Origin: Escherichia coli
GTDB taxonomy: Bacteria > Pseudomonadota > Gammaproteobacteria > Enterobacterales > Enterobacteriaceae
Assembly: GCF_044324875.1 (NCBI RefSeq)
Contig: NZ_CP172185.1
Strand: one strand, 5' to 3'
Length of the DNA: 64,000 bases
The notes beneath the pieces are model-generated. The model worked only from the letters and a program-made list of their open reading frames with translations, searched no databases and was not told where the DNA came from. This document shows positions 7,110 through 35,697 of the stretch, in pieces. Each line of letters begins with the position of its first letter. Positions within the stretch are counted from its first letter, which is position 1. A program made the translations under genes and the position numbers.

Positions 7110-7141
7110 TATTAGCATATCCTTCTTACGAGATTACGTAG

Positions 7142-8380: not shown

Positions 8381-8399
8381 TGTACTGAGAATAAAGACG

Positions 8400-9833: not shown

Positions 9834-9925
9834 TTCTCCGTTCCGACCTGTTTCTTGCAGGGTGAGTTTTTATTTCTGCCAGTCTCTGGCTGGCATGTTA
9901 TTGTCTGGAATAATGAGAGAGCAAA

Positions 9926-11191: not shown

Positions 11192-11205
11192 TATTCAGGT
11201 GTAGC

Positions 11206-12699: not shown

Positions 12700-12711
12700 C
12701 GGGATATTATT

Positions 12712-13725
12712 ATGAAAAACTATCATGCCCTGTCTGTTATTTTTACTCTTATGTTACCCGCGCTGGCGAATGCGAGCATGAGCATCATGAAGGATCCGTC
12801 TGGAAAGGTTATCGCCGTGGACCCTTGGTCATATCTTGATGAAGATGTTATGTGGACCTCAGCCCGCTCCTCCAATCCTGCCGGTGGCCGCGTTCATGGC
12901 CAACTGAAAATGAAATATGCCATTGAGGATAATAACTGGCGTAACAGCCATTTCCACAACGGGAATGATTCGCTGACGTTTGTACAAGGTGTGATGCGGC
13001 ACGATGCGTTACCCGGTTGGTATCTGGCTTTCTCTGAGGGCAGAACCACTAACTATAACGGGACGTGGGAGGATCAGTCTTACCTCAGCCAAAACCAGTG
13101 GACTCAGTTGATCATCGGCCATGAATATTTTTACAAGCGTCTGCGCTATGGCTGGGATGTGATGGGAGGAAGCGCCTCAATCGAAGACCGCTGGCAAGGC
13201 CGCGTTAAGTTCTTTACCGATCTTCGGGTTACGGATAATTTCTCATTCTTTAACTACCTGTATCAGCAGATCGATCACCGGCGCAGCGGTGGGTCGCAAA
13301 ACGACCGTGACGTGCGTTCATTTCAGATTGAGCCAGGCGTGCAATACATTATTAATAACAACACCGGTGTCTGGTTCCGCCAGCAGTTCGCATCTGCCAT
13401 TTTAGACAGGGCGCAGTGGGGCGATATCGACGAAAAAAGCTGGACCACGTCAGTCGGCGTCTGGCGAAACTGGGGGAAGTTATCCACAACGCTCAGCGGC
13501 GGTTATGGTCATTATAAGAAATACAATGCGCAACCTGAGGATGGCGAAGTCTTTCAGAATACCCGCAATCGCTTCCTGAAGGTATCGGCAAATTATCCTT
13601 TGACCTCTCGTTTTACCGTGTCCGGAGAAGTTACTGGTTCGTTGATCAAACAGAACGGAAGTTGGGTCACTAACGGTGAGGCCATTACCACTGAGTATAA
13701 GCTGATGCTGGATTATAACTTTTAA
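12712..13725 (+). CDS. fosY: Predicted outer-membrane beta-barrel protein, paralogue of fosX
   Basis: 337 aa; signal peptide MKNYHALSVIFTLMLPALANA; shared motifs with the 9926 ORF (HDxLPxWY, WGDIxExxWxxxxGxWRNW); C-terminal ...LMLDYNF. Confidence 0.6.
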   Translation: MKNYHALSVIFTLMLPALANASMSIMKDPSGKVIAVDPWSYLDEDVMWTSARSSNPAGGRVHGQLKMKYAIEDNNWRNSHFHNGNDSLTFVQGVMRHDALPGWYLAFSEGRTTNYNGTWEDQSYLSQNQWTQLIIGHEYFYKRLRYGWDVMGGSASIEDRWQGRVKFFTDLRVTDNFSFFNYLYQQIDHRRSGGSQNDRDVRSFQIEPGVQYIINNNTGVWFRQQFASAILDRAQWGDIDEKSWTTSVGVWRNWGKLSTTLSGGYGHYKKYNAQPEDGEVFQNTRNRFLKVSANYPLTSRFTVSGEVTGSLIKQNGSWVTNGEAITTEYKLMLDYNF

Positions 13726-13838
13726 ACCGTACGCTGGATAATCCATGCCACCTGAACACGCTGAAGCGTTAGTAAAAATAGTGACCTTACCGCAGGTCAC
13801 GTTTAAAAAAACAAGTTAATTATTATTAAGGAAATATC

Positions 13839-14801
13839 ATGAATATCTGGACTCTTGGCGATGCTGTTGTTGATCTTCTACCCCTTACAGATATGCAATT
13901 TCGTGCTTGTGCAGGAGGTGCGCCATTTAATGTTGCGATAGGTACTGCACAATTGAAATGTCGTACCGGCTTTATAGGTCGCGTAGGGGATGACGATTTT
14001 GGCCATTTCCTGAGAAAAACTCTCGAAGATTCAGGAGTTTCTACACAATGTATCCAAATGGATAAATATCATCGTACAAGTACAGTACTGGTTTCTCTTA
14101 AAGATCAGGGAGAACGTGGTTTTACATTTCTTACGAACCCTTCAGCCGACCAATTTCTAACACAAGATGCCCTTCCAGCTTTTAGTGATGATATCCTGCA
14201 TTTTTGTTCACTTGCGCTGGTTGCTGCAGATTGCCGCACGACTTTGACTAAAGCAGTCCAGGAAGTCATTGACCACGGTGGACTTATCAGCTTTGATGTT
14301 AATTTACGAGACCAAATGTGGCGTGATAAGGAAGAAATGTTTGCGACAGTGAGTCAATTCGCTGAAAAAGCCGATATCCTTAAACTCTCTGAAGAAGAGT
14401 GGTACTGGTTAATGGGTACACATGATTATACAGAGGCGTTAGAAGCACTCAAAACCCATCCTGCCAGATTAAAAGTGGTCACCTTTGGTGCGAGAGGTTC
14501 ATTGGTATTATGGCAAGATATGGTGATACATTTCAGAGGATTTAATGTTAAAAGTATTGACACAACAGGCGCTGGAGATGCTTTTATGGCTGGGTTACTT
14601 GCCAGCATCGCCAATAAAGGTTTGCCAATGAATTTTCCAGAACTTCAATTAGCAATCACTCAGGCCAGTGCCACCGGAGCGCTCGCAACTACCAAAAAAG
14701 GTGCACTTACCGCCCTTCCTGATACAGCCGCACTGGAAACGTTCATTAATCATTTTCCATTACCGGGCTATGAGATCCTTGGAGCAACCGCTACGGTGTA
14801 A
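13839..14801 (+). CDS. fosK: Fructokinase, PfkB/ribokinase family (CscK-like)
   Basis: 320 aa; N-terminal GD motif (MNIWTLGDAVVDLL) and C-terminal TTGAGDAF anion-hole motif; visibly more AT-rich than upstream genes. Confidence 0.8.
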   Translation: MNIWTLGDAVVDLLPLTDMQFRACAGGAPFNVAIGTAQLKCRTGFIGRVGDDDFGHFLRKTLEDSGVSTQCIQMDKYHRTSTVLVSLKDQGERGFTFLTNPSADQFLTQDALPAFSDDILHFCSLALVAADCRTTLTKAVQEVIDHGGLISFDVNLRDQMWRDKEEMFATVSQFAEKADILKLSEEEWYWLMGTHDYTEALEALKTHPARLKVVTFGARGSLVLWQDMVIHFRGFNVKSIDTTGAGDAFMAGLLASIANKGLPMNFPELQLAITQASATGALATTKKGALTALPDTAALETFINHFPLPGYEILGATATV

Positions 14802-15393: not shown

Positions 15394-15454
15394 TTACTGA
15401 TTTAGTGTATGATGGTGATTTTAAGTAAGCGACTCGTCAGAACCGTATTGATAT

Positions 15455-17026
15455 TTACTGAGAGCTCAGATCAACTTTCCAGGGCAACAGATCGCGTACC
15501 CGGTTTGCCGGCCAGTCCTGGATATGTTCAATGACGTAACGCAGCCACTTTTCTGGCTCCACATTGTTCAGACGGCATGTGCCGATCAGCGAGTACAACA
15601 CCGCCGCATGTTCACCACCGCTGTCGGAACCCGCGAACATCCAGTTTTTCCGGCCTACGGCCACTCCCCGTAAGGCGTTCTCTGCGATGTTGTTGTCGAT
15701 TTCCACCCAGCCATTACTGCAGTACACGTTCAGTGCATCCCACTGTTTCAGCAGGTATGCGAACGCTTTTGCCGTATCTGAGTGACGCGACAGTGTTTTC
15801 ATCTGTTGCTGTATCCAGTCATACAGTGACTGCATCAGTGGCGCGGCTCTGGCTTTTCTTGCCGCCAGACGCTGTTCTGCTGAACAGCCCCGGACCTCTG
15901 CCTCGATGGCATACAGTTCACCGATACGCTGCAGGGCTTCCGTGGTGATGTAGGTGGGCGCTCTTGCATGCACATCGTGGATTTTTCTCCGGGCATGAGC
16001 CATACACGCGGCTTCCGTTATTCTGCCGGATTCGTATAACGCCCGGTAACCACCGTAAGCATCGGCCTGAAGCACACCGCTGTAACCGGCCAGGTGATTT
16101 TGTGGATGGATACCTTTCCGGTCCGGACTGTACGCGAACCAGACCGCCGGGGGCATCTGTGAACCGGCGTTACGGTCATCACGGACGTAGACCCACAGCC
16201 GGGCTGTCCGGGTTTTACCGCTGCCCGGCTCCTGGACCGGGACGGGGATATCATCAGCATGGACTTTACCGGGCATCAGCACATACTGGCGCAGGACGTC
16301 ATACAGCGGCTCCAGCAGTTCAGCAACAGCACCTGTCCAGCGCCCCAGTGTGGCACGGCTCAGCTCCACTCCCTGACGACGGTATATTTCTGACTGGCGG
16401 TATAACGGCAGATGGTCTGCATATTTCCCGGTGACAACATGGGCCAGAAGCCCCGCTCCGGCATAACTGCGTGCAATGGGTTTTGAAGGTACTGGTGCCT
16501 GCACGATATGGTCGCACCGGCAACAGGCCTGTTTCGGACGTTGTGTTTCGATAACCTTAAAGGCGCTGCTGATAAGCTCCAGTTGCTCTGACACATCACA
16601 TCCCAGAGAACTGAGTTCACCACCACAGGCAGGACAGCATTCCTCTTCCGGCCGGATAACCCGGGTTTCACGGGGAAGTGAGGCCGGTAACGGTTTACGG
16701 GCTGAAGACTGGCGCAGGGCGGATGGCAGTACCGGGTCATATTGCTCACCCAGCGTTTCCGCCATTTCTTCCTGAAGTGCGCTGATTCGCTCCTGTGCTT
16801 CCTGTATCTGCCGTTCGGTTTTTGCACGAAGTTTTTCTGAGCTTTTACCGAACTGCATACGTTGCAGTTTCGCAACCAGCGCCTTCAGCCGGTTGATTTC
16901 GGAAGCATAAGCCGCCACCCGCTGTGAGAGCAGGCGGTTGTATTCAGCCATCTGGCGGATGGTGTCCTGTTGCGTCTGCAACAGTGCCCGCAGGCGGGCG
17001 TTCTCATGAGCAAGTGAGGTGTCCAT
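15455..17026 (-). CDS. tnpC: IS66-family transposase TnpC
   Basis: 523 aa with N-terminal coiled-coil/leucine-zipper region, CxxC zinc motif and DDE core typical of IS66 transposases. Confidence 0.85.
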
Positions 17027-17045
17027 ATCCTCACTTTACAACGGG

Positions 17046-17393
17046 TTATATGCGGATTCCAGCGCGTTCCGTTCGTTTCGGGTGCTTCCAGTTGATACCT
17101 TCAAGAAGCATGGATAACTGAGCCGGAGTAAGGTGCACCTTGCCGTCACGGGTGACTGGCCAGACGAAGCGGCCCCGCTCCAGGCGTTTGGTGAAGAGGC
17201 ACAGTCCGTCACTGTCAGCCCACAACACTTTTATCTGGTCACCCCGGCGTCCGCGGAAGATGAACAGGTGTCCGGAGAACGGGTCATCCTTCAGGACGTT
17301 CTGAACTTTTGATGCCAGGCCGTTAAAGCCATTTCGCATATCGGTGATACCTGCAACCAGCCAGATACGCGAACCTGCAGGGAGAGATATCAT
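17046..17393 (-). CDS. tnpB: IS66-family Orf2 (TnpB)
   Basis: 115 aa; MISLPAGSRIWLVAGITDMRNGFNGL... is the conserved IS66 Orf2. Confidence 0.85.
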   Translation of the reverse strand: MISLPAGSRIWLVAGITDMRNGFNGLASKVQNVLKDDPFSGHLFIFRGRRGDQIKVLWADSDGLCLFTKRLERGRFVWPVTRDGKVHLTPAQLSMLLEGINWKHPKRTERAGIRI

Positions 17394-18070
17394 CAGTGGC
17401 TGCTCCCTTTTATTTCGCGGATAAGTGTCTGTAATAACGCCGGCGTCAGTTTACCTTTAAGCCTGAGAGTTCCGGCCGGCAGAACCAGCTCACAACACAG
17501 ACTGTCGGACGGTGTATTTATCTGCTCTGGTTCCTGTGCGGGGGCCGGGATTTTATTATCCGGCTCCGGCGTTAACGTCACGGGAAGCAGTGCCGGCATA
17601 TTTTTTCCGGAAGGCAGCAGGCCACCTTTCCGGTATTGATGGCGCCAGTTGAAGAGCAGGTTATCGTTGATTCCGTTTTCCCGGGCGATCTGCGCCACAC
17701 AGGCTCCGGGCTGCAGTGACTGCTCCACTAAGGCGATTTTAAACTCATAAGGGAAGTTGGGCCGCCGGGGACGTTTTTTTACCACGGGGGCTTCGGATAT
17801 AACGGTGCTTTCAGGACGTACGACTGGTACCGTGGAAAATTGTCCGTAAAGGCAGGCATCAAGTTCCTGCTCCGACATGCCTGCGGGCAAAGGCCACGAA
17901 AGGCCAGCTCTCCGAAAGCGCACGAACATACTACAAACTGTTGATTTTGGTACACCCAGGCGACGCCCGGCCACAACCCGGGGTAAATGTTCTTCAAAGT
18001 GAAGACGTAAAGCTTCAGTGATCCAGGTCCGGTGTTTCATACGATAGTGTCCATTAAAAATGATGGACAT
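17393..18070 (-). CDS. tnpA: IS66-family accessory protein (TnpA); true start uncertain, probably internal
   Basis: ORF immediately upstream of and overlapping tnpB (ATGA overlap) in the canonical IS66 arrangement. Confidence 0.6.
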   Translation of the reverse strand: MSIIFNGHYRMKHRTWITEALRLHFEEHLPRVVAGRRLGVPKSTVCSMFVRFRRAGLSWPLPAGMSEQELDACLYGQFSTVPVVRPESTVISEAPVVKKRPRRPNFPYEFKIALVEQSLQPGACVAQIARENGINDNLLFNWRHQYRKGGLLPSGKNMPALLPVTLTPEPDNKIPAPAQEPEQINTPSDSLCCELVLPAGTLRLKGKLTPALLQTLIREIKGSSH

Positions 18071-18140
18071 TATTTTTGTAGAGCCGGAGGAAACAGACCA
18101 GACGGTTTAAATGAGCCGGTTACGATTTTAAGGTGCTTGC

Positions 18141-18416
18141 GTGGCTTCCATTTCCATCAGATGTCCTTCCTGCTCCGCTACTGAAGGCGTGGTGCGTAAC
18201 GGCAAAAGCACTGCCGGACATCAGCGCTATCTCTGCTCTCATTGCCGTAAAACATGGCAACTACAGTTCACTTACACCGCCTCTCAGCCCGGTACGCACC
18301 AGAAAATCATTGATATGGCCATGAATAGCGTCGGATGTCGCGCCAGTGCACGCATTATGGGCGTTGGCCTCAACACGGTTTTACGTCACTTAAAAAACTC
18401 AGGCCGCAGTCGGTAA
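18141..18416 (+). CDS. insA: IS1 InsA
   Basis: 91 aa, [43 protein letters not shown]... matches IS1 InsA. Confidence 0.9.
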
Positions 18417-18790
18417 CCTCGCGCATACAACCGGGCAGTGATGTGATTGTCTGCGCTGAAATGGACGAACAGTGGGGCTACGTCGGTGCTAAATCACGTC
18501 AGCGCTGGCTGTTTTACGCGTATGACAGGATACGGAGGACGGTTGTGGCGCACGTCTTCGGTGAACGCACTCTGGCCACACTGGAGCGTCTTCTGAGCCT
18601 GCTGTCGGCCTTTGAGGTCGTGGTATGGATGACGGATGGCTGGCCGCTGTATGAATCACGCCTGAAGGGAAAGCTGCACGTTATCAGCAAGCGTTACACT
18701 CAGCGCATTGAGCGACATAATCTGAATCTGAGATCTGGCAAGGCTGGGACGGAAGTCACTGTCGTTCTCAAAATCGGTGGAGCTGCATGA
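18335..18790 (+). CDS. insB: IS1 insB' frame (expressed as InsAB' transposase by -1 frameshift)
   Basis: Overlaps insA in another frame; translation matches IS1 InsB. Confidence 0.85.
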
Positions 18791-19430
18791 CAAGGTCATC
18801 GGGCATTATCTGAACATAAAACACTATCAGTAAGTTGGAGTCATTACCAACGGTAAATATCCATAAGTGTGGGCTTGCGGAATAAATAGTTTGGTTAAAG
18901 ATAAGGTGGTTTAATACTGCTGAGTATTTTATAGGAGATATGATGTTGTTTTATAAACAAACTAAAAAACATGAAGTTTAATTGATAGGGGACAATGAAA
19001 TCTCCTTTTTAAACTCAATTGCTATGTTGGGTTTATGGGGTTGCTATAAACGGTTTTGAATAAACGCTTTACTATTCTCATGAAAACAGTGTTATGTTGT
19101 TATTTTAACAACCCCGCATTGTTTTTTGATGGGATGGGTATTAAGACTTTAGAGAAACTTTATAAATAAATATATGTATTCAATAGTGGCGAAAATAATA
19201 ACCCATCTTATTATTACATTGTGGAAGTGCTCTTTTTTATTATCGCTCATGTTTTACCTTTCTGTTAAAACATATTCTTTCGGATATGTAAAATGGTAAG
19301 AGATAGTTAATCTACGTATGCATGGGGGCGTTTCATTGCATGGCGTTATAATCTGGCTTGTATATAAAGGCACTATAAGTTTTACTCTTACAGTGCCTTT
19401 ATTTGGCCATGATTTACCCTCTACAATAAA

Positions 19431-21818
19431 TTAATCATTACAGGATAGGTTCATATTCCATTCATAAGCCTCAATGCCGTTAATCAGTAGTTGACGACTT
19501 TCTCCCTGAGGAATTATCACTTTCAATGTTTCCCATGCAGGGCGATAATCTCCATGAGTGTTTATTCTTAACTCAATTGTAGTGGCTGTGCAGTCCAGCT
19601 CCCATTCAAGCCACAGAGCATTACCTTCAGTATATCCCCAAGTTTCGCCATCATCTTCAAACAGAAGTCCGGTGGATTTACCCGTTCCTTTAATTGGGAA
19701 TAATTTCAATTTACGATGATTATCTTCCGCTTCACTCACGTATGTTATACGTTCACTAAGAGGAATACCTGCACCTGCACGTACTAATAATGGTAGTTTT
19801 TCCAGTGGCGCGTCGATTGTTATCCATTGACCACCACAGAACCATTCGCCATTGTAAAAGTCGTACCATCCTGTTTTGTTGTCGGGTAACCATACTCGTC
19901 GTTGTCGTTGCCCTGCTTCCACGACACTTGCAACCAGAATATCGCGTCCCAGCATAAAATCATCACATTCTTCAAATGTCTGAACATCGTGCTCATGATC
20001 AAGGAAGGTTGGACGTAATATTGGCTCATCATCGGCATGTGCCTGCCACAATAATGTATATAAATAAGGCATAAGACGATAACGTAACTCAATTGCACTA
20101 CGAATCGCGGGTGTTACTTCCGGATACATCCATGGTTCATTGACAGTATGATCATCATTCCACGAGTGGATCGTAAATCGGGGGTGCATAACACCGTTCT
20201 GAACCCAACGAACAAATAATTCTGGATCAGGCTTATCACCAGAAAAACCACCGACATCATGACCAATGTTATACAATCCTGAGAGGCTCATTCCCAGCCC
20301 CATGCGGGTGTTGTATCGAAGGGTATCCCAGTTAGTTCGGTTGTCCCCACTCCATGTCTGAACATAACGCTGCAATCCGGCGCATCCAGAGCGGGAAATC
20401 AAATATGGTCGTTTGTTCGGTGCAAATTTTTGCTGTGCTTCCATAGATGCTCTGCACATTAAAAGAGGCATTACTGGCCGAATGTGTTTAATGGCGATTT
20501 CTTTGCCAAAACCATGACAGCGCGCTTCCCCATCCCATACTTCAAACTCATTGTTATCATTCCAGGTGGAATCAATTCCCATTTCAAGTAGTTGTGTGGT
20601 TACACCTTCCTGCCACCATGCGACTGTTTGTGGGTTCGTAAAGTCCAGATGAGAACCCTCATCATCCCAGAAGCTGGAGCGTTCCGGGACGTTGTATTCA
20701 GAGTCACGAATAAAGAGCTCTTGTTCTGCTACTTCGTTATAGCGAGGATGATCCTGCAATAAACATGGTTTTATATTAGCGGCCAGGTGTATCCCTGCAT
20801 TATGAAACTCCTGACTCATCATTTTAGGGTGTGGAACTTTGTCGTAATTCCAGTTGAATACGTAGCGTTTACCATTAATAGAAGTATAACCAGAAGATAG
20901 CTGGAAAGAATCACATGGAATAGCATGTTCCTTACAAAGACGAATAAACTGCATCAATTGATTCTGAGCATCCGGTGCATCTGTATAGTGCATCGTGGAA
21001 CCGCTGTACCCAAGACTCCATTTTGGACCGAAGAGTGTTTTCCCCGTCAAACGAACAAAGGCTTTGGTGATATCAAGTACACATCTGCCAGTGAAAAGAT
21101 AATAATCAATATCTCCCGCCTCAGCCTGCCAACGGCGGTAAGTTGTATGATAATTATCTATTTCATTACCTAAATCCAGCCAACTATTGCTGAGGTTATC
21201 ATAAAATAATCCAAAGCTAATATCGCTACGGTGAGTAATTGTAAATGGAATATGTTTATAAAGAGGGTCTGTACTTACTGCATTATATCCCATTGCGTCC
21301 AGGTTCCGCATTTCATAGCGTTTTCCTGTGCGTTGCAGATCCCCGGATTTATCACCAAGTCCATAAAAACGCTCGTCATTACGTCGACTTTGATAGTGTG
21401 CAACACCATCACCATGAGCGTTTATCAGATAAGCACTGGTAGGGCGATCATTAACAAGTTCCTGCCACTGACCAGCATTATCCTTATAATGCCATTCAAG
21501 CCATAAAGGCTTGTGAATAATTACGCGTAATGAACTGGTCGTGATTGTCAGTAATTCATCATTCTGCTCCATGTTCCAGGTCGGCAGTGAAAAACCGCTA
21601 ATATCTTCGCGATGACGCCCTTCCCACGGGACATCCTTTTCCGGAGCAATGCTCCAGGTTCGGTCCAGCGACAAAACCCCCTTCCGTTTTAATAGAACCC
21701 GGAACATATTTTCTTCGAGTATATACAGGCAAAGAGAATGCTGACCATCAACTAATAGCTCTATATGATGGGCTGACTGATTTTGTAGTTTCCAGTTTTT
21801 TAATGTTTTCATCTCCAC
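19431..21818 (-). CDS. GH31 alpha-glucosidase / alpha-xylosidase family glycoside hydrolase
   Basis: 795 aa; GH31 nucleophile-region motif GIDSTWNDNNEF (variant of WIDMNE); AT-rich codon usage; followed on the minus strand by a hairpin (19366..19400). Confidence 0.75.
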   Translation of the reverse strand: MEMKTLKNWKLQNQSAHHIELLVDGQHSLCLYILEENMFRVLLKRKGVLSLDRTWSIAPEKDVPWEGRHREDISGFSLPTWNMEQNDELLTITTSSLRVIIHKPLWLEWHYKDNAGQWQELVNDRPTSAYLINAHGDGVAHYQSRRNDERFYGLGDKSGDLQRTGKRYEMRNLDAMGYNAVSTDPLYKHIPFTITHRSDISFGLFYDNLSNSWLDLGNEIDNYHTTYRRWQAEAGDIDYYLFTGRCVLDITKAFVRLTGKTLFGPKWSLGYSGSTMHYTDAPDAQNQLMQFIRLCKEHAIPCDSFQLSSGYTSINGKRYVFNWNYDKVPHPKMMSQEFHNAGIHLAANIKPCLLQDHPRYNEVAEQELFIRDSEYNVPERSSFWDDEGSHLDFTNPQTVAWWQEGVTTQLLEMGIDSTWNDNNEFEVWDGEARCHGFGKEIAIKHIRPVMPLLMCRASMEAQQKFAPNKRPYLISRSGCAGLQRYVQTWSGDNRTNWDTLRYNTRMGLGMSLSGLYNIGHDVGGFSGDKPDPELFVRWVQNGVMHPRFTIHSWNDDHTVNEPWMYPEVTPAIRSAIELRYRLMPYLYTLLWQAHADDEPILRPTFLDHEHDVQTFEECDDFMLGRDILVASVVEAGQRQRRVWLPDNKTGWYDFYNGEWFCGGQWITIDAPLEKLPLLVRAGAGIPLSERITYVSEAEDNHRKLKLFPIKGTGKSTGLLFEDDGETWGYTEGNALWLEWELDCTATTIELRINTHGDYRPAWETLKVIIPQGESRQLLINGIEAYEWNMNLSCND

Positions 21819-21826
21819 ATACTCCC

Positions 21827-23128
21827 TCAGGTGCGTTTTTTGCGACGTTCTGCAATAAAAGTAACCAGAAAAAAAGCACCAATAAGATCAAAAAATCCCA
21901 TGGCGATAAATAGCGGGTTAAAGCCTATTTTGTCAGCAGTAACGCCAATAATCAGTGAGAACAAAAAGCTGGCAATCCATGCGGCTGAACCACGCATTCC
22001 ATTAACAGTGGCCATCTGCCCCTTATCAAAAGATTCAACGACCAGGGCACTTAACATGCAGGAAATTATCTGATGACCAAAACCACCAATGGAGATAAGT
22101 ACAATAGCAATATATGGATTGTCGATAAAAGCAATCACAGCAAGCGAAACCATTAGAAATGCTCCGCTTACAGAGGACGCAATAACAGAATTTACTCTGC
22201 TTAACCCAAACAGACGGGTATAGAGTTTTGTCAGATATCCGCTGGCAATACTTCCTAAATCAGCGCAAAGAAATGGTAACCATGCAAACAGAGCTATTTG
22301 TTTAAGGTCCATGCCATATGCTTTTGCAAGATATAATGGCACCCAAAAGCTCATTACAGCCCATGCTGGCTCTGCCATAAATGCAGGGATAGCGATTCCA
22401 TAAAAGCGTTTATTTTTACTAACTGTTTTTAACGCGGTCAGAAAAGGCATTTTTACCGGAGGAGCTTCGTTATCCTGTCGGATAAAGTTGAGCTCATTTT
22501 TACTTAAGTTTGGGTGCTCTTCTGGTGTGTTATAACACGCCCACCAAAGGAAAACCCAAAGAATTGCAAGTGCACCTGTAAACATAAATGCACCCTGCCA
22601 ACCAAATGACGCATGTGCAAAGTAAATAATTGGTGGTGCAAGCATTGCACCGATAGAAAAACCGACACCCGCCCAGCCAGCAGCAACAGGACGTTCAGAT
22701 TTTGGAAACCACTCACCTATAATTTTTGCATTTGCAGGTGTCGCAGAAGCCTCAGCACCTCCCATGAAAAAACGAAGCAACGCAAGCTGTATCCAGCTTC
22801 CTGCTCCTGCATGCAGAAGACAAGCAATTCCCCATAATGAAGCACAAATCATAAATCCAATCTTGAGCCCAATAACATCAATTAGCCATCCACAAAGTGG
22901 CTGAAAAAGGGTATATGCAAGCTGAAATCCACCAACAATCCAGGAGTATTGTTCAGTTGTAATTCCAAGGCTGTCTTTTAACTCTGGTGCCAAAATACCT
23001 AATGAGTTTCTGGTAATATAATTGACAGTGACACCCATTAGAAAAAGGATTAACATCCACCACCGTAGTTGTCTTATTATTCGACGGTGTTTGCTGACAG
23101 CTATATTATTATTTATATCCTGACTCAT
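21827..23128 (-). CDS. MFS sugar/sugar-acid transporter (ExuT/ACS-like)
   Basis: Start taken at MSQDINNN (ATG complement at 23126..23128) with an upstream purine-rich SD-like sequence; 12-TM hydrophobic profile; 8 bp downstream gap to the GH31 gene. Confidence 0.7.
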   Translation of the reverse strand: MSQDINNNIAVSKHRRIIRQLRWWMLILFLMGVTVNYITRNSLGILAPELKDSLGITTEQYSWIVGGFQLAYTLFQPLCGWLIDVIGLKIGFMICASLWGIACLLHAGAGSWIQLALLRFFMGGAEASATPANAKIIGEWFPKSERPVAAGWAGVGFSIGAMLAPPIIYFAHASFGWQGAFMFTGALAILWVFLWWACYNTPEEHPNLSKNELNFIRQDNEAPPVKMPFLTALKTVSKNKRFYGIAIPAFMAEPAWAVMSFWVPLYLAKAYGMDLKQIALFAWLPFLCADLGSIASGYLTKLYTRLFGLSRVNSVIASSVSGAFLMVSLAVIAFIDNPYIAIVLISIGGFGHQIISCMLSALVVESFDKGQMATVNGMRGSAAWIASFLFSLIIGVTADKIGFNPLFIAMGFFDLIGAFFLVTFIAERRKKRT

Positions 23129-23389
23129 AATCACCCCACCGGATGTAATAAATGATCGAGCGACAACGCAGCTCGGGGTTGCCACATCCCACTTTACCTT
23201 TCGGCTTAATACTTAAACCGGAACTACTCATTCACAATAAAAGAGGGGGGCGATGAAAAAAAGTTGGTATTGTGCACGTTTTTTCATAAGTAGTTCATAT
23301 AAATTCTAAAAATAGTCAGAAGTCCTTGCAGTCAGGCTATTCCATCCCATGAGAATTTTTTCATTTTGAAATTAGAGATAGATCACAAT

Positions 23390-24460
23390 ATGGAAAAAAA
23401 ACTAAAGATTGCTGATATTGCCATGCGAACAGGCCTTTCATCCAGCACCGTGTCACGGGTTTTAGCGGGTAAAGCTAATACCAGTTATCGTGCCCGCGAG
23501 AAAGTATTGGCGTGTGCCAGAGAGCTTGGGGTTATGGATGGAATGGCATCCGGCCGTATGTTGTTAAACAACCTTGTCATTTTTGCTCCTCAACGGGCTT
23601 TTGATGAGCGAACAGACATTTTTTATTTCCGCGTAATCCAAAGCATCAGCAAGGCATTATCGCATTATGAGGTTCGGTTGCGTTACTGTGCCCTTGATGA
23701 GTTCGATAGTACACCTTCAAAATTCCTGGCGCGCATGAATGAGGCAGAAACACAGGCTGCAATATTGCTTGGTATTGATGATCCTCATATACATGATCTT
23801 GCAGCAGATTTTTCTAAGCCGTGCGTAATGATTAACTGCCATGATCGACGTATGCGTCTTCCCACAGTTGCTCCAGATCACAAAAACATTGGTGCTTTTG
23901 CGTCTCACTTTCTGTTTGAAATGGGGCATCGCAGAGTAATGAACATTATGTGTTTACGTCGATACACAATGGAACTGCGACTTGCCGGAATTAAAGAAGC
24001 ATGGGAGAGACAGAATCAGAACTTTAAAGATGACAGAGATTTACTCACTATTAATAGTTTCAGCGCCAAAGAAGCCGAAGAAAAAGTCGGAGCATGGCTG
24101 GATATGACAGAGAAAAGTATGCTACCGACTGCTTTTTTGGCAAGTGGGGACTTCATTGCTGCAGGTATAATTAACGCTTTAAAAAAACGTAATATACGAG
24201 TGCCACAAGATGTGTCCGTAATGAGTATTGATGGGTTTAATCTGGCTGCAATAGAAGATGTGCCACTTACGGCAGTACATGTACCTCGCGATGAACTGGG
24301 TACTGAAGCGGTACATATGTTACAACAAAGACTTGTACGTCCTGATGCAACTGTTGGTGCATTACTTTTGTATGGGAAACTGGTAATACGAGAATCTGTT
24401 CGCCGTATACGGCCAGGGAAAGAGCCAACTCCGATTAAAGGAGATGGACTGTATGACTGA
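23390..24460 (+). CDS. LacI/GalR-family transcriptional regulator, divergent from the MFS/GH31 operon
   Basis: N-terminal HTH LKIADIAMRTGLSSSTVSRVLAGK; periplasmic-binding-protein-like sugar-binding domain; start chosen at MEKKLK. Confidence 0.75.
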   Translation: MEKKLKIADIAMRTGLSSSTVSRVLAGKANTSYRAREKVLACARELGVMDGMASGRMLLNNLVIFAPQRAFDERTDIFYFRVIQSISKALSHYEVRLRYCALDEFDSTPSKFLARMNEAETQAAILLGIDDPHIHDLAADFSKPCVMINCHDRRMRLPTVAPDHKNIGAFASHFLFEMGHRRVMNIMCLRRYTMELRLAGIKEAWERQNQNFKDDRDLLTINSFSAKEAEEKVGAWLDMTEKSMLPTAFLASGDFIAAGIINALKKRNIRVPQDVSVMSIDGFNLAAIEDVPLTAVHVPRDELGTEAVHMLQQRLVRPDATVGALLLYGKLVIRESVRRIRPGKEPTPIKGDGLYD

Positions 24461-24857
24461 AACCACAGCCTCTGATTCTTCCGGTCAAGGGAAAATAAGC
24501 GTAATGTTCATCACCAGATTATGTACGATGAGTTTTCCACTGTTTATAGCAATTATCTTGCTAATAACCAGACAGGAGTAACCAGACCAACCGAAAACAC
24601 CGGGAAGGTGATTACCCGCTGGCAGAGGAAATCCGGTTTTTTTTGATGTCAGCCATAACGTGTTTGACAATAAAGCATTATGAAAGGGTGTTAATGAGTC
24701 CATGGGATAATTCATAAAAATAATTTACTGTGTTATCCTTTTCAAAAGAAATATTCAGAAGATAACCCCTGGCTGACAACCAGGGGAAGGGGACATTAAC
24801 AGTGTTATTATTGGTGGATAAATTATTACTTGTGTGCAGGATACACTAATGCAATAT

Positions 24858-25901
24858 CTACTGATACTGTATGCCAGTATGTTTCATGCCTGCCGCTGAA
24901 AACGGCAATATCCAGGGCCAGACATATTCACCATTCATATTTCTGCATTTCTGTACAATTTTTTCAGAAAGCGTCTCATCAATTCTTTCACGCAACTTCT
25001 CCTGCTGTCTTAAAATACTTTCGCATATTTCGAAATCACCTTCCTGCATCAGCATTTCGGCGCATTTAATGATTTCTGCCCGTTCATGCAGCACAGAGGA
25101 ATGATTATAGAGCCAGTTTACAAACAGCAATGCTTCCGGATATTGTCCCCATAATGGTGAGTATGTTGCATAGTAATCTTCTGCCGTATCCAGAGAGCCG
25201 GAGAAGTCATGCCACACAGCAAGTGGAAATGGATGCAGATTTCCGCACAGCATTTCTGCGATGTAAGTGTTTGTGGCAAAGCCATGGCGAAAATCTGTGG
25301 CGGCCTTAACATGTTCCCCGTTCAGAAAATGCAGGAGACCGAGTTCATACCAGTAAGGTGAAAATTCATCAGCATGCTCTTTCAGTACACTGAAGGCTCG
25401 CTCATGATCGCCGGTGCGTAACAGCTCTGAACCCAACAACCAGCGAGCCCCCTGATTATCTTCAGGATTGTATGCCAGTATTTTATCAGTGAGCATAACC
25501 GCATCCTGATGGCGCTGTAAGTGCACATTTGCGAGAATTGCTGCATAAAGCGCGCGCAGATAAGGCCGGTTTTCGGGATGCATCCAGATTATTTCACCAC
25601 AGAAACTTTCCGGGATGATACGATTACCTGCCGCCAGTCCTTTAAGAGCGGCGTTCAGTGCCTTACGCGGGGCATTCTGTTCCAGAAATGCATATGCCAG
25701 ATGAGCGTGTATATCAATAAAATCCGGCTCCCGTTGAGCAAGGCGTCGGAGTTTGTTGATGTAACTCGTCTCGCTGATTTCATCAGCGTCGTATGCATCA
25801 AGCACTTCTTCAAACTCCCCCAGCAATGGGCCAAACCAGGTATCCGGAAATACGAAATAACCCTGGTTATCGTGCACTTCAAAGCATAATCTATCGTTCA
25901 T
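24858..25901 (-). CDS. Hypothetical protein, helical repeat (TPR-like) architecture, function unknown
   Basis: 347-aa ORF, AT-rich; sequence is mostly helical-repeat-like with no catalytic motif I recognise. Confidence 0.5.
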   Translation of the reverse strand: MNDRLCFEVHDNQGYFVFPDTWFGPLLGEFEEVLDAYDADEISETSYINKLRRLAQREPDFIDIHAHLAYAFLEQNAPRKALNAALKGLAAGNRIIPESFCGEIIWMHPENRPYLRALYAAILANVHLQRHQDAVMLTDKILAYNPEDNQGARWLLGSELLRTGDHERAFSVLKEHADEFSPYWYELGLLHFLNGEHVKAATDFRHGFATNTYIAEMLCGNLHPFPLAVWHDFSGSLDTAEDYYATYSPLWGQYPEALLFVNWLYNHSSVLHERAEIIKCAEMLMQEGDFEICESILRQQEKLRERIDETLSEKIVQKCRNMNGEYVWPWILPFSAAGMKHTGIQYQ

Positions 25902-26311: not shown

Positions 26312-27496
26312 TTAACTTTCCCGGCTGGAGAGTGAATCAATGTAATCAGCGTACCATTGCATCATTTCACGGCGGCCATCGAGATACAGGGCATGATTAT
26401 AGGTACCCCTGATGGAATTTTTATCCACATGAGCTAACTGCATTTCAATCCAGGCGGAATTAAAGCCTTGTTCATGCAGAATTGTACTCATGGTGTGTCT
26501 GAAACCGTGCCCTGTGAGTCTTCCCTTATATCCAAGTAATTCAATTACTTGGTTAATGCTTTCCTTACTAATTGGTTTGCGGGGATCATTTCTACCGATA
26601 AAGACTAGGGGATGATGTTTTGAGATTGGTTCAAGCTGCTTAAATAGCATAATGACCTGCTCAGAGAGCGGCACAATATGAGGTCGCTTCATCTTCATTA
26701 CTTCTGCCGGGATCTCCCACAATTTTGTCTCAAAATCGATATCTTCCCAGCGTGCAAAACGCAGTTCTTGTGTTCGTACGCCGGTTAACATAATGATCTG
26801 AGTAGCTGTCTTAGTGATTATACTTCCGGTATAACCCGCCAGATCGTTGAGGAAGTGGGGAAGTTCATTAGCAGTAAGAAAGGGAAAATGTACTTTTTTC
26901 GGTGTAGCTAAAGCACTGGCAAGATCGGGGGCTGGGTTATAGTCTGCCCGGCCAGTAACAATTGCATAGCGGAACACCTCACCACAGCGCTGGCGGACCT
27001 TGCGCATTTTCTCCAGAGCTCCACGTTTTTCCATTTTACGCAGTGCTTCCAGTAACTCCATTGGTTTGATTTCGGCAATAGGGCGCTTGCCAATGTAGGG
27101 AAAAATGTCTTTTTCAAAGGTATCAATGATTTCATCACGATAGCGTAATGACCACCGATCGGCTTTTGACTGGTGCCATTCGCGAGCAATAGCCTCGAAC
27201 GTATTTTGCAGACTCATTTGCTGCGCGATTTTTTCTTCCTTTTTTGCCTCCCCTGGATCGCCTCCAGCAGCGAGGAGTTTCCTGGCTTCACTGCGTTTCT
27301 CGCGAGCATCGGCTAGCGTTACATCGGGGTATACGCCAATAGAAAGCATCTTTTCTTTACCAGCAAAGCGGTACTTCATGCGCCAGTATTTAGAACCATT
27401 AGTGTTAATCAGTAGATACATACCGCCGCCATCAGCAAGCTTATAGGGTTTGTCTTTGGGTTTTGCGGTTTTCACTTTGATATCGGTTAATGCCAT
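26312..27496 (-). CDS. int: P4-type tyrosine integrase (island integrase)
   Basis: 394 aa; N-terminal MALTDIKVKTAKPKDKPYKLADGGGMYLLI... typical of P4-family integrases; C-terminal catalytic region with H-x-x-R and Tyr; about 300 bp from the tRNA-Sec 3' end. Confidence 0.9.
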   Translation of the reverse strand: MALTDIKVKTAKPKDKPYKLADGGGMYLLINTNGSKYWRMKYRFAGKEKMLSIGVYPDVTLADAREKRSEARKLLAAGGDPGEAKKEEKIAQQMSLQNTFEAIAREWHQSKADRWSLRYRDEIIDTFEKDIFPYIGKRPIAEIKPMELLEALRKMEKRGALEKMRKVRQRCGEVFRYAIVTGRADYNPAPDLASALATPKKVHFPFLTANELPHFLNDLAGYTGSIITKTATQIIMLTGVRTQELRFARWEDIDFETKLWEIPAEVMKMKRPHIVPLSEQVIMLFKQLEPISKHHPLVFIGRNDPRKPISKESINQVIELLGYKGRLTGHGFRHTMSTILHEQGFNSAWIEMQLAHVDKNSIRGTYNHALYLDGRREMMQWYADYIDSLSSRES

Positions 27497-27795: not shown

Positions 27796-27890
27796 TGGCG
27801 GAAGATCACAGGAGTCGAACCTGCCCGGGACCGCTGGCGGCCCCAACTGGATTTGAAGTCCAGCCGCCTCACCGGAGACGACGATCTTCC
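27796..27890 (-). tRNA. selC: tRNA-Sec (selenocysteine), anticodon UCA
   Basis: Minus-strand sequence GGAAGATCGTCGTCTCCGGTGAGGCGGCTGGACTTCAAATCCAGTTGGGGCCGCCAGCGGTCCCGGGCAGGTTCGACTCCTGTGATCTTCCGCCA matches E. coli selC; long variable arm. Confidence 0.95.
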
Positions 27891-28182
27891 GCGCCTCGAT
27901 TGCTACATGGAGGCGGGGCGCATTATAGCTACTTCCTTGAGTTTCTACATCCCCCAGATCAGTTTTTTCCGCCTAATACACGCAGCGTATTATCACGGAA
28001 GCATTATAATTCATATAAAACCCATATTTTACAATGATATATGAGCGGAATTAACGCTACCACGATCACATAAAACAAGAATCATAAATTAATAACCAGA
28101 TATCGGAATATTCGCTCTCACAGGGATGGTTTACAAAATGCGTTATCGGTCTCAGCACCCCTATAGCATCAAGGAAAAGCAG

Positions 28183-29565
28183 ATGAAGAGTGAAGTGTTG
28201 TCCGTTAAAGAGAAAATTGGTTATGGCATGGGAGACGCCGCCAGCCACATTATTTTCGATAACGTAATGTTATATATGATGTTCTTTTATACCGATATTT
28301 TTGGCATTCCTGCCGGATTTGTCGGAACTATGTTTTTGGTCGCTCGTGCACTGGATGCGATTTCCGATCCTTGCATGGGGTTGTTGGCCGATCGAGCGCG
28401 CTCTCGCTGGGGTAAATTTCGTCCGTGGGTACTGTTTGGCGCACTGCCATTTGGGATCGTCTGTGTACTGGCCTATAGCACGCCAGATCTCAGTATGAAC
28501 GGAAAAATGATTTATGCAGCAATTACTTACACCCTACTTACCTTACTTTATACCATCGTTAATATCCCTTACTGCGCATTGGGTGGTGTAATCACCAATG
28601 ACCCGACTCAGCGTATCTCGCTGCAATCCTGGCGTTTTGTGCTGGCGACCGCGGGAGGCATGCTCTCTACTGTGCTGATGATGCCGCTGGTTAATTTAAT
28701 TGGTGGTGATAATAAACCACTCGGTTTCCAGGGCGGTATCGCGGTCCTTTCCGTGGTGGCATTCATGATGCTGGCATTTTGTTTCTTTACCACTAAAGAA
28801 CGCGTTGAAGCACCACCTACAACGACGTCTATGCGGGAAGATTTACGTGATATCTGGCAAAACGATCAGTGGCGGATTGTCGGTTTACTGACCATTTTCA
28901 ATATTCTGGCGGTGTGCGTACGCGGCGGGGCGATGATGTATTACGTCACATGGATTTTGGGTACGCCGGAAGTGTTTGTCGCTTTTCTTACCACTTATTG
29001 CGTGGGTAACCTGATTGGTTCCGCACTGGCGAAACCGCTGACCGACTGGAAATGTAAAGTCACTATCTTCTGGTGGACGAACGCCCTGCTGGCAGTGATT
29101 AGCCTCGCGATGTTCTTTGTTCCTATGCAGGCCAGCATCACTATGTTTGTCTTCATCTTCGTGATTGGTGTGTTGCATCAACTGGTGACACCTATCCAGT
29201 GGGTAATGATGTCCGATACCGTCGACTACGGCGAGTGGTGCAATGGTAAACGCCTGACCGGGATCAGTTTTGCTGGCACGCTGTTTGTGCTCAAGCTGGG
29301 GTTGGCCTTCGGCGGCGCTCTTATCGGCTGGATGCTGGCTTATGGCGGATATGATGCGGCAGAAAAAGCGCAGAACAGCGCCACGATTAGCATCATTATC
29401 GCGCTATTCACGATTGTTCCGGCGATCTGTTATTTGCTGAGCGCGATTATCGCTAAACGCTACTACTCACTCACGACGCACAATCTGAAAACCGTTATGG
29501 AACAGCTGGCTCAGGGCAAACGCCGTTGCCAGCAACAATTCACCTCTCAAAATGTGCAGAACTAA
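28183..29565 (+). CDS. yicJ: GPH-family (glycoside-pentoside-hexuronide) cation symporter YicJ
   Basis: 460 aa from MKSEVLSVKEKIGYGMGDAASH...; matches E. coli YicJ from memory. Confidence 0.9.
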   Translation: MKSEVLSVKEKIGYGMGDAASHIIFDNVMLYMMFFYTDIFGIPAGFVGTMFLVARALDAISDPCMGLLADRARSRWGKFRPWVLFGALPFGIVCVLAYSTPDLSMNGKMIYAAITYTLLTLLYTIVNIPYCALGGVITNDPTQRISLQSWRFVLATAGGMLSTVLMMPLVNLIGGDNKPLGFQGGIAVLSVVAFMMLAFCFFTTKERVEAPPTTTSMREDLRDIWQNDQWRIVGLLTIFNILAVCVRGGAMMYYVTWILGTPEVFVAFLTTYCVGNLIGSALAKPLTDWKCKVTIFWWTNALLAVISLAMFFVPMQASITMFVFIFVIGVLHQLVTPIQWVMMSDTVDYGEWCNGKRLTGISFAGTLFVLKLGLAFGGALIGWMLAYGGYDAAEKAQNSATISIIIALFTIVPAICYLLSAIIAKRYYSLTTHNLKTVMEQLAQGKRRCQQQFTSQNVQN

Positions 29566-29574
29566 GGAACGGCA

Positions 29575-33741: not shown

Positions 33742-33767
33742 TGTCAGAATTTTATGAGGTATGACGA

Positions 33768-34238
33768 ATGGACATAACAAAAATCCTGAATACGAATCGC
33801 GTTATTTTAGATATGCAAGCGACGAATAAAGCGGAGGCGATTGAAGAATTAACTAATCTTCTCAAAAAAGATGGTGCGATCGATTGTCGGGAAACCTTTA
33901 TTAAAGATGTCTGGCAGCGCGAAGCGGAAGGCTCGACTGGTTTTGAAAATCATATTGCGATCCCGCATGGTAAATCTTCTGCGGTAATTAATACCACGCT
34001 GGCTATCGGGCGTACCCGGCAGGATATTCCCTGGGAAACACTGGATGGCAGTAGCGTACGCTGTATTATTTTATTTGCGGTACGTCTTGAAGATCAAAAT
34101 ACCACTCATATCCGTTTACTTTCCCAGGTCGCGGGCGCGCTTGCAGATGATGACATCATAGCGCAATTGCTGGTTGAGACGAGCCCGCAAAAAATCATTG
34201 ATCTCTTTAGTCAGTATGCACAATCCGATGTCTACTAA
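33768..34238 (+). CDS. PTS EIIA component, fructose/mannitol family
   Basis: 156 aa with the conserved IAIPHGK histidine-phosphorylation motif. Confidence 0.8.
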   Translation: MDITKILNTNRVILDMQATNKAEAIEELTNLLKKDGAIDCRETFIKDVWQREAEGSTGFENHIAIPHGKSSAVINTTLAIGRTRQDIPWETLDGSSVRCIILFAVRLEDQNTTHIRLLSQVAGALADDDIIAQLLVETSPQKIIDLFSQYAQSDVY

Positions 34239-34255
34239 ATAACAGGGAGTATATC

Positions 34256-34570
34256 ATGAATATTGTCTGTGTTGCCGCCTGCACGGCGGGTATTGCTCAC
34301 ACCTATATTGCTCGTGAAAAGTTAATTAAAGGGGCAAAAGCACTGGGCCACACCATTAAAGTTGAAACCCAGGGAACCATTGGTACAGAAAACGAATTAC
34401 AGGCGGCAGAGATCTCTGCTGCTGACGTCGTGATTCTTGCTGTGGATGTGAAAATAAAAGGAGAAGAACGTTTTACCAATAAACGCATTGTGCGAGTAAA
34501 GACAGAGATCGTCATTAAATCGCCCGTTCAATTTCTTGAAAAGGTCGAAAAATCACTGGGAAATAAATGA
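34256..34570 (+). CDS. PTS EIIB component, fructose-type
   Basis: 104 aa; N-terminal Cys-containing motif VCVAACTAGIAHTY. Confidence 0.75.
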   Translation: MNIVCVAACTAGIAHTYIAREKLIKGAKALGHTIKVETQGTIGTENELQAAEISAADVVILAVDVKIKGEERFTNKRIVRVKTEIVIKSPVQFLEKVEKSLGNK

Positions 34571-34594
34571 TCCTTATACTGGAGGGATCTTAAT

Positions 34595-35686: not shown

Positions 35687-35697
35687 CCGGAGGCCCT

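Follow-up and report, generated by a model that had tools for sequence, protein, structure and literature searches.

The aec-35/aec-36/aec-37 cassette of a selC island in Escherichia coli: a possible LacI-controlled system for the use of alpha-D-glucuronides

Introduction

The 64,000-nucleotide stretch of Escherichia coli DNA analyzed here (contig NZ_CP172185.1; hereafter, the window) carries three divergently arranged genes between positions 18849 and 24460: aec-35 (23390..24460, plus strand), which encodes a 356-aa LacI-family transcriptional regulator; aec-36 (21827..23128, minus strand), which encodes a 433-aa major facilitator superfamily (MFS) transporter of the anion:cation symporter (ACS) family; and aec-37 (19431..21812, minus strand), whose product is a 793-aa cytoplasmic glycosidase of family GH31. 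Together they constitute the aec-35/aec-36/aec-37 module, which occupies the end nearest to selC of an AGI-3-type genomic island, and they are that cluster itself rather than a lookalike. AGI-3 is a 49.6-kb selC island that encodes sugar transporters and metabolic functions (PMC2704930), and the cluster is tracked as aec35-37 in typing schemes for avian pathogenic E. coli (APEC) (PMC10189387); its deletion is reported to lower both trehalose use and virulence (PMC7549927), the attenuation having been described for chickens. The module serves as an APEC fitness and virulence marker, and no report of its substrate was found in the 20 years since its description. The cassette as an object is already known, and its design is an ordinary one for sugar use; what is added here is a hypothesis regarding its substrate, itself anticipated in part, according to which the cassette may allow the use of an alpha-D-glucuronide.

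Gene content and island setting

The identity of the cassette follows from comparison with two sequenced strains. The DNA of window 18849-24460 is 100% identical to that of E. coli strain 7/2, and strain 7/2 and strain BEN2908 have the three cassette proteins in common (WP_001313395.1, WP_001329026.1, and WP_000412404.1); because the DNA matches the former without a difference and the accessions are those of the latter, the genes are Aec-35, Aec-36, and Aec-37 themselves. An earlier note on this DNA, made from the sequence alone, had likened it to a three-gene cluster known from a selC island of APEC, which was correct and indeed understated, the DNA and the proteins being the same as those of the AGI-3 cluster. 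Over a longer distance, window 1-24500 aligns to the BEN2908 chromosome with 100% coverage and 99.8% identity, the position of an IS66 element being the sole rearrangement, and window 23390-27890 is 100% identical to the BEN2908 sequence.

Beyond aec-35, the open reading frame (ORF) list, the tRNA call, and the annotation place, all on the minus strand, a 76-aa hypothetical island gene (24485..24715), a gene for a tetratricopeptide-repeat (TPR) protein of the island (24858..25901), a tyrosine recombinase that represents the island integrase (26312..27496), and tRNA-Sec (selC, 27796..27890), the site of island integration. This order, from the LacI gene through the 76-aa hypothetical, the TPR gene, and the integrase to tRNA-Sec, is common to CFT073, strain 7/2, and BEN2908. 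The cassette is carried by 337 of 5,426 complete E. coli genomes (329 to 337, depending on the count), and the LacI-TPR-integrase-tRNA-Sec series forms a single contiguous block in approximately 335 E. coli genomes. Presence of the three genes at another locus of island-free core genomes, which the earlier note had put forward as the observation that would overturn the island assignment, finds no support in the near agreement of these two counts. In other E. coli, the TPR-integrase segment occurs at roughly 88-90% identity (hits H35 and H36) next to a phosphoethanolamine transferase gene, and the integrase module therefore carries differing cargo by strain.

The distal (left) boundary of the cassette consists of an IS1 remnant (18124..18848; strand unassigned), to which the 'IS1 family transposase' of BEN2908 maps at 18141..18833 and whose end sequence can be read directly. 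A location in the ykg region, first suggested by the RefSeq label 'ykgR' on a small ORF within the cassette, was ruled out by the annotated selC context.

Gene starts, base composition, and the region 3' of the operon

The regulator on the plus strand and the transporter and GH31 genes on the minus strand were all found where the earlier note had placed them, namely as ORFs at 23366..24460, 21827..23185, and 19431..21818, respectively. The starts that are better supported, however, are 23390 for the LacI gene, 23128 for the MFS gene, and 21812 for the GH31 gene, in view of how RefSeq annotates identical DNA, of orthologue N-termini, which all begin with MKTLK, and of the placement of the Shine-Dalgarno sequence, a GGGAG whose position favors the shorter genes. 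The 8-bp spacing between MFS and GH31 given previously thus stands only with a GTG start at 21818; with the better-supported ATG at 21812 the gap becomes 14 bp, which is probably the true value.

The marked AT-richness already pointed out for this segment is borne out by composition: the cassette has 41.6% GC, with GC at third codon positions (GC3) of 0.32-0.37, as compared to 49.7% GC for the entire window and a GC3 of 0.57 for core yicI in the same window. A search for a donor by GC content revealed no close orthologue as AT-rich as the E. coli copy. The most AT-rich part (18849..19430, 31.6% GC; strand unassigned) starts directly past the IS1 remnant. It had been described as an upstream region, yet it lies past the GH31 stop codon and, the gene being read on the minus strand, downstream (3') of the operon, the real control region being located at 23129..23389. 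Within this 3' region, annotation and translation indicate a 33-codon ORF (19149..19250, minus strand) that RefSeq labels as the small membrane protein 'YkgR' (MSDNKKEHFHNVIIRWVIIFATIEYIYLFIKFL). Folding also reveals, on the minus strand at 19364..19402, approximately 27 nt past the GH31 stop codon, a 16-bp stem-loop with a weak U-tract; its folding energy is -28.3 kcal/mol (z = -6.3), a value that 200 shuffled sequences all failed to reach. The hairpin is a candidate terminator or 3' stabilizer.

The hydrolase and its remodeled active site

Domains, fold, and alignment all identify Aec-37 as a GH31 glycosidase. The protein lacks a signal peptide, its AlphaFold2 model is confident (pLDDT 94) and displays the GH31 fold, and its orthologues carry PF13802, PF01055, PF21365, and PF17137. 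A Foldseek search with this model reached E = 7e-74 for 6jr6, and the closest solved structures, with 25-26% identity and TM-scores of 0.82-0.85, are the FjDex31A dextranase of F. johnsoniae and endoplasmic reticulum (ER) glucosidase II; a solved structure from within the clade of Aec-37 itself was not found.

In order to characterize this clade, 106 full-length representatives from a 50%-identity library were aligned together with the YicI protein encoded in the window (29575..31893) and K-12 YihQ. The alignment register is supported because the residue map derived from it agrees with the catalytic numbering published for YicI (D416/D482) and YihQ (D405/D472, R301, Y508). The nucleophile D419 (within WNDNNE) corresponds to YicI D416 and YihQ D405, and the acid/base D490 (within WSGDN) to YicI D482 and YihQ D472; neither varies within the clade, and R474, D519, and H549 are kept beside them in Aec-37. 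The surroundings of the nucleophile read TWNDNNEFE in Aec-37, as opposed to KTDFGE in YicI, and the contention of the earlier note that the enzyme is a paralogue distinct from core YicI, based on this very difference (WNDNNEF versus KTDFGE), is therefore correct.

In roughly 90 of the 106 representatives, here called LfaA-type after a named orthologue discussed below, the canonical 'LDIDY..MD' is swapped for 'LSSGY..(K/R)R'. The clade-specific replacements are S306 (canonical Asp; YicI D306), N346 (canonical Ile; YicI W345), K348 (canonical Asp), and N420 (canonical Met; YicI F417). Ser at position 306 is found in 89% of the clade and Asn at 420 in 100%, while the 15 canonical representatives display Asp (100%) and Met (87%) at the same positions. 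No variation within the clade is seen at S307, G308, R316, N346, K348, or N420, and conservation of R545 reaches 99%, all seven coinciding with, or lying close to, the counterparts of YicI pocket residues (D306, C307, W345, F417); H355 is also clade-specific and invariant or nearly so. Aec-37 consequently displays neither the canonical alpha-glucosidase signature, that is, a sugar-hydroxyl-binding Asp after strand 3 and a Met after the nucleophile, nor that of the alpha-xylosidase YicI, whose C307, W345, K414, and F417 are replaced by S307, N346, W417, and N420. On the side of the -1 pocket predicted to face C4-C6 of the sugar, two acidic residues are thus lost and basic ones gained, a change that would fit a sugar with a C6 carboxylate.

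An anionic group at C6 evokes the sulfoquinovosidase YihQ, in which Arg301 is the sulfonate-binding arginine. R316 of Aec-37 aligns with this residue both by MAFFT and by an independent profile hidden Markov model, and a longer loop after strand 3 is common to both enzymes, all of which could suggest that Aec-37 diverged from a sulfoquinovosidase-like ancestry and acts on a different sugar with an anionic C6 group, be it a sulfonate, sulfate, or phosphate. Only the Arg of the sulfonate triad is kept, however, W304 and Y508 of YihQ being replaced by F319 and F523, and Q288 by Ser; in addition, the 79 gene neighborhoods described below are devoid of sulfoglycolysis genes, and the accompanying transporter is ExuT-like. 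This explanation is regarded as very improbable.

The invariant N346 raises a further option, that of a GH31 lyase rather than a hydrolase, since Asn is what GH31 alpha-glucan lyases display at this position (N459), as opposed to Ile in hydrolases (PMC12441222). Against this stand the conservation of the acid/base D490 and of the rest of the hydrolase machinery, the lack of any solved lyase among the 62 PDB matches at E <= 1e-20, and a gene context of Uxu enzymes that expects free glucuronate; a lyase would be a highly surprising outcome.

An ExuT-like transporter

Aec-36 is a paralogue of the K-12 hexuronate transporter ExuT, with which it shares 43% identity over its full length (414 residues; E = 5e-120). 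Its best NCBIfam match is TIGR00893, which describes an anion:cation symporter subfamily, at 266 bits and hence below the curated cut-off of 395, and some sources name it 'ACS family hexuronate transporter-like'. It is thus predicted to carry a sugar that bears a carboxylate.

The nature of the transporter and of the -1 pocket are of relevance to the simplest explanation of the cassette, in which Aec-36 imports, and Aec-37 hydrolyzes, a neutral alpha-glucoside such as trehalose, nigerose, kojibiose, isomaltose, or a similar sugar. The enzyme is annotated as 'alpha-glucosidase' or 'glucan 1,3-alpha-glucosidase', its best NCBIfam and PDB relatives are alpha-glucosidases, and the aec deletion has been linked to trehalose use (PMC7549927). 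Nevertheless, the entire clade has replaced both the Asp that canonically binds the sugar and the Met that follows the nucleophile, the transporter belongs to an anion-symporter family, other taxa substitute TRAP (tripartite ATP-independent periplasmic) systems, whose substrates must generally be acidic (PMC5507952), and the neighboring genes are those of glucuronate, not of glucose or maltose, metabolism. An ordinary alpha-glucoside cassette is, on balance, unlikely.

The regulator and the divergent control region

NCBIfam and annotation classify Aec-35 as a LacI-family regulator, with full-length matches to RbsR, CytR, and PurR; its orthologues carry PF00356, PF00532, and PF13377, and the protein has the LacI/GalR architecture of an N-terminal helix-turn-helix followed by a periplasmic-binding-protein-like effector domain. 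The sequence between the divergent starts (23129..23389; strand unassigned) measures 261 bp and has 38.7% GC. An inverted-repeat scan of this region returned nothing, and scans with sigma-70 and terminator consensus sequences performed no better than on shuffled sequences (20 promoter-like sites versus 15.9 expected); a candidate operator surfaced only through comparison across genera.

That comparison revealed a 14-bp palindrome, TGAAAANNTTTTCA, which, when one mismatch is allowed, is present in 27 of 42 LacI-MFS intergenic regions of loci arranged as in E. coli (type A, see below), and in no region of the loci that lack the LacI gene (type B). Its density amounts to 3.09 hits/kb in those intergenic regions as compared to 0.0135 hits/kb over the other 815 kb of these loci, an approximately 230-fold difference, and in other genera it is often paired, with sites 77-78 bp apart. 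In the window, the sole match with at most one mismatch in the entire 64 kb is O1 (TGAGAATTTTTTCA, 23350..23363; strand unassigned), a candidate LacI-type operator located 27 bp ahead of the start codon of aec-35. A candidate weaker operator, O2 (23273..23286; strand unassigned as a feature), reads TGAAAAAACGTGCA on the minus strand, with one perfect half-site and three mismatches, and is centered 77 bp from O1, in agreement with the spacing observed in other genera.

A second kind of site consists of boxes of the UxuR-type TTGGTnnACCAA, which are found upstream of the MFS gene in 7/8 type B loci and in 11 of the 42 type A loci; palindromes of the type recognized by UxuR/ExuR, of the FadR subfamily of GntR regulators (AAATTGGTTAACCAAAT), occur once or twice each in 7/8 type B regions. 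The presence of these UxuR/ExuR-type boxes upstream indicates that the operon is wired into the hexuronate regulon in many species. The 11 type A regions with both kinds of sites belong to Yersinia, Serratia, Pectobacterium, Budvicia, and Hafnia, which implies that control may be dual in these genera and that the E. coli copy may have lost, or never had, the UxuR/ExuR part; the E. coli operon appears to be governed by its local LacI-type repressor alone. It is of note that in several of the loci (L024, L026, L027, L029, L033-L035, L037, L047, and L073) both LacI palindromes and a UxuR/ExuR-type TTGGTAAACCAATTT box are found at a fixed offset.

Glucuronate genes in the neighborhood of relatives

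A scan of species-representative genomes yielded 80 loci, in 79 of which the ORFs within five genes of the GH31 gene were counted after having been clustered without prior labels, the clusters then being named by NCBIfam. An ExuT-like MFS gene is found directly upstream of GH31 in 49/79 loci, and is replaced in this position by the TRAP component DctM in 25; a LacI-family regulator is present in 42. Genes of the glucuronate pathway recur: glucuronate isomerase UxaC and a UxuR/ExuR-like regulator in 26 loci each, fructuronate reductase UxuB in 22, and mannonate dehydratase UxuA in 19, with the order DctQ-DctM-GH31-UxuB-UxaC being recurrent. The regulator with a score above its curated cut-off is UxuR.

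Three arrangements can be distinguished (arrowheads indicate the direction of transcription). Type A, LacI< MFS> GH31>, is that of E. coli and is encountered in Enterobacterales and Pseudomonas. Type B, UxuR< UxaC< UxuB< UxuA< MFS> GH31>, is present in Pantoea, Erwinia, some Enterobacter and Klebsiella, Aeromonas, and Zophobihabitans. Type C, UxuA< UxuR< GH2< DctP< DctQ> DctM> GH31> UxuB> UxaC>, occurs in Vibrio, Marinomonas, Pasteurellaceae, Halomonadaceae, many marine Alphaproteobacteria, and one Firmicute. Individual genomes provide further links: the cassette adjoins uidABC in Edwardsiella, and in Erwinia amylovora a 77%-identical MFS gene diverges from uxuA-uxaC-uxuR.

These neighborhoods bear on the two explanations that involve a uronate in a different manner. 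In the first, the cassette would serve alpha-galacturonides or oligogalacturonides, with Aec-36 importing galacturonate or digalacturonate and Aec-37 acting as an alpha-galacturonidase; ExuT carries both hexuronates, and many of the hosts are plant-associated (Dickeya, Pectobacterium, Erwinia, Pseudomonas syringae). The recurrent UxuA and UxuB are, however, enzymes of the glucuronate branch, and the regulator above its curated cut-off is UxuR; because UxaA, which is specific to the galacturonate branch, is found in just 1/79 loci, this explanation is downgraded and can be considered quite improbable.

In the second, glucuronate would occupy the reducing (+1) side of a disaccharide, for example an alpha-glucosyl- or alpha-N-acetylglucosaminyl-glucuronate, from which the GH31 enzyme removes the neutral alpha-sugar, while a GH2 enzyme deals with beta-linked glucuronate, if present. 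Such a substrate would suit an anion transporter, the Uxu context, and the GH2 beta-glucuronidase-like gene that is located near GH31 in 14/79 loci, and would reconcile these with an enzyme whose overall similarity is to alpha-glucosidases. Conversely, the substitutions of the clade affect -1 positions (those of YicI D306, C307, W345, and F417, and the equivalent of YihQ R301) and not the known +1 subsite, and E. coli as well as most type A loci have no GH2 partner; we consider it rather doubtful that glucuronate is bound in this manner. The GH2 protein of the type C loci (L051-L088; for example, L084:5116-6930) scores 224 bits on the UidA beta-glucuronidase model, whose cut-off is 544, and probably represents a distinct, uncharacterized GH2 clade with its own specificity.

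Two other observations concern the distribution of the family. In Enterobacter, Citrobacter, Kosakonia, Pluralibacter, and relatives (L009-L016, L030, L042, L050, L056, L057, and L069), the cassette is located in a conserved chromosomal neighborhood, with a PFL2-3 glycyl-radical enzyme, a Cof-type HAD hydrolase, and an unnamed 421-aa protein upstream, and an ABC-F ATPase and an L,D-transpeptidase downstream; because of this conservation, the cassette looks native in such hosts and island-borne only in E. coli. Furthermore, the 90%-identity protein cluster that includes the GH31 enzyme of the window also contains its MFS transporter, and has as its representative a 641-aa protein (P0012). This mixture is likely an artefact of a chimeric or mis-called P0012, and could mislead cluster-based counts.

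A proposed route for alpha-D-glucuronides

The fact that LfaA-type enzymes are associated with glucuronate genes is not new. Leyn et al. (2017; PMC5507952) placed a cytoplasmic GH31 enzyme, 'LfaA', encoded between UxuB and UxuA in a Rhodobacteraceae strain, under 'Glucuronate utilization', and speculated on glucuronide hydrolysis. A Dickeya orthologue has been named lfaA and listed as an alpha-glucosidase (PMC4522980); its accession, AJC66752.1, is that of the GH31 protein of one of the loci (L058), which is 71% identical to the window protein and is part of the same cassette. Prior literature that ties LfaA to the E. coli aec genes, or that provides the active-site argument or biochemistry, was not found. 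The statement of the earlier note that the substrate is not obvious from sequence therefore applies to the single sequence, but comparative genomics does provide a specific lead, toward a glucuronide.

The best overall explanation, which in our judgment has slightly better than even chances, is that of LacI-controlled uptake and cytoplasmic hydrolysis of an alpha-D-glucuronide that feeds the core Uxu pathway. Aec-35 would repress its own gene and the aec-36/aec-37 operon via the TGAAAANNTTTTCA palindrome, and probably via a second, weaker site 77 bp away, until a sugar effector arrives. Aec-36, as an ExuT-like anion:cation symporter, would then import a carboxylate-bearing sugar, and Aec-37, as a cytoplasmic retaining GH31 enzyme, would cut the alpha-glycosidic bond and free D-glucuronate. 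In this process, the glucuronate of the alpha-D-glucuronide would occupy the -1 subsite, its C6 carboxylate being gripped by R316 and K348, and the core enzymes UxaC, UxuB, and UxuA would convert the released glucuronate into 2-keto-3-deoxygluconate (KDG). The more general view that the cassette serves an alpha-glycoside that yields glucuronate is reasonably probable. More tentative, and in our estimate somewhat short of an even chance, is the proposal that Aec-37/LfaA is a GH31 alpha-D-glucuronidase with a uronate in the -1 subsite, the founding member of such a clade and the carboxylate counterpart of YihQ; it is gene context and the changes in the active site that point to this activity. 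As for natural substrates, one may speculate on the alpha-glucuronosyl-glycerol head group of glucuronosyldiacylglycerol (GlcADG) lipids of plants, algae, and bacteria, the lipid itself being documented (PMC3586718), and on aldouronates derived from xylan.

A number of points weigh against this proposal. We know of no GH31 alpha-glucuronidase; a literature search for a GH31 alpha-glucuronidase or a glucuronosyl-glycerol hydrolase yielded nothing relevant, and a search for biochemistry on any member of the LfaA clade found none. ExuT is a carrier of free hexuronates, and the solved TRAP binding proteins closest to the co-located DctP are presumably hexuronate binders, so that the transporters might import a free monosaccharide instead of a glycoside. 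An aec-35..37 mutant described in 2006 by Chouikha et al. (J Bacteriol 188:977) is reported to have grown more slowly on galacturonate, rather than glucuronate, with seven carbohydrates being affected. The positions of R316, K348, and R545 relative to C6 are those suggested by the alignment. The database label of the enzyme is alpha-glucosidase and its overall similarity is also to alpha-glucosidases, the nearest solved structures being those of a dextranase and ER glucosidase II. The uxu genes are not adjacent to the cassette in E. coli and in most Enterobacterales, and the control region of the window (23129..23389) holds no UxuR/ExuR box TTGGTnnACCAA at up to two mismatches. Lastly, the published mutant phenotype includes trehalose, which is a neutral alpha-glucoside (PMC7549927).

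If the alpha-glucuronide proposal were correct, it would establish a new GH31 specificity and provide a function for a clade found across many phyla, to which most of the 50%-identity representatives closest to this protein belong. Such a finding would also represent an entry of alpha-glucuronides into the classical hexuronate pathway, and explain the presence of a second ExuT-like transporter on an island of extraintestinal pathogenic E. coli (ExPEC). An ExuT-like or TRAP importer together with LfaA would allow Enterobacterales, pseudomonads, vibrios, Pasteurellaceae, and marine Alphaproteobacteria to harvest alpha-glucuronides, and a selC island with a link to virulence in birds would be the vehicle by which the trait spread in E. 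coli. If it were false, the module would stay an ordinary island-borne sugar cassette.

Other features of the window

Two operons that combine a transporter with a GH31 enzyme flank selC: the core yicJ-yicI operon (28126..31893), which encodes a GPH symporter and an alpha-xylosidase, and aec-36/aec-37 (19431..23128), encoding an ACS symporter and the LfaA-type GH31 enzyme. Directly downstream of yicI is located the frz operon (32188..39131), which includes genes for a BglG-type antiterminator, IIA/IIB/IIC components of a fructose-family phosphotransferase system, two aldolases, a ROK kinase, and a lyxose/mannose-type isomerase; frz is a published ExPEC fitness locus (PMC12928451).

On the island side, the window contains the complete AGI-3 fos locus for short-chain fructo-oligosaccharides (5906..14801), which is 99.96% identical to that of BEN2908 (PMC3325963) and encompasses the LacI-family gene fosR (minus strand), the MFS gene fosT, two GH32 genes that are each followed by a gene for an OmpG-like porin, and a sugar kinase gene. 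Between this locus and the IS1 remnant lies an IS66-family element (15425..18124) with intact tnpA, tnpB, and tnpC (225, 115, and 523 aa). The IS66 copy of BEN2908 is 98.6% identical, lies approximately 12 kb deeper in the island, and is annotated as frameshifted pseudogenes. The window is therefore derived from a close relative of BEN2908 and not from that strain; for the function of the cassette, the element is of no relevance.

Comparison with known systems

The closest known system is AGI-3 of BEN2908, with which the window shares identical cassette proteins, gene order, divergent layout, and integrase and tRNA-Sec neighbors, as well as the fos locus. It differs in that the IS66 element at 15425..18124 is intact, while the BEN2908 copy is degraded and located elsewhere in the island, the flanks being 98.6-99.9% identical. 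LfaA of Dickeya and Pectobacterium belongs to the same orthologous family (70-74% identical) and is encoded within the same LacI-MFS-GH31 cassette; the E. coli copy, in contrast, is island-borne and AT-rich, and lies without a UxuR box and away from the uxu genes.

Among GH31 enzymes of E. coli, YihQ of K-12, together with yihOP, offers the parallel of a cytoplasmic enzyme for an imported C6-anionic sugar, with a longer loop that carries an Arg (R301 in YihQ, R316 here). The two are nevertheless related by only about 110 bits, W304, Y508, and Q288 are not conserved, the transporters are of the GPH and ACS families, respectively, and YihQ is linked to sulfoglycolysis, as opposed to the Uxu pathway. 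YicI-YicJ, on the other side of selC in the window, is likewise a two-gene operon of a GH31 enzyme and a cation symporter, but has the KTDFGE motif, a GPH transporter, and a pocket whose D306, C307, W345, K414, and F417 all differ in Aec-37 (approximately 124 bits). Of the solved enzymes, FjDex31A and ER glucosidase II share the GH31 fold and the catalytic residues, yet both retain the canonical Asp and Met that the LfaA clade has lost.

It is the uidABC and exuT-uxaCA/uxuAB systems that would display the same logic as the one proposed for the aec cassette, with import of a glucuronide or hexuronate, release of glucuronate in the cytoplasm, and catabolism by UxaC, UxuB, and UxuA. The aec cassette would differ from them in its opposite anomeric specificity, in the use of a GH31 rather than a GH2 enzyme, and in its control by a LacI-type repressor instead of UidR, UxuR, or ExuR.

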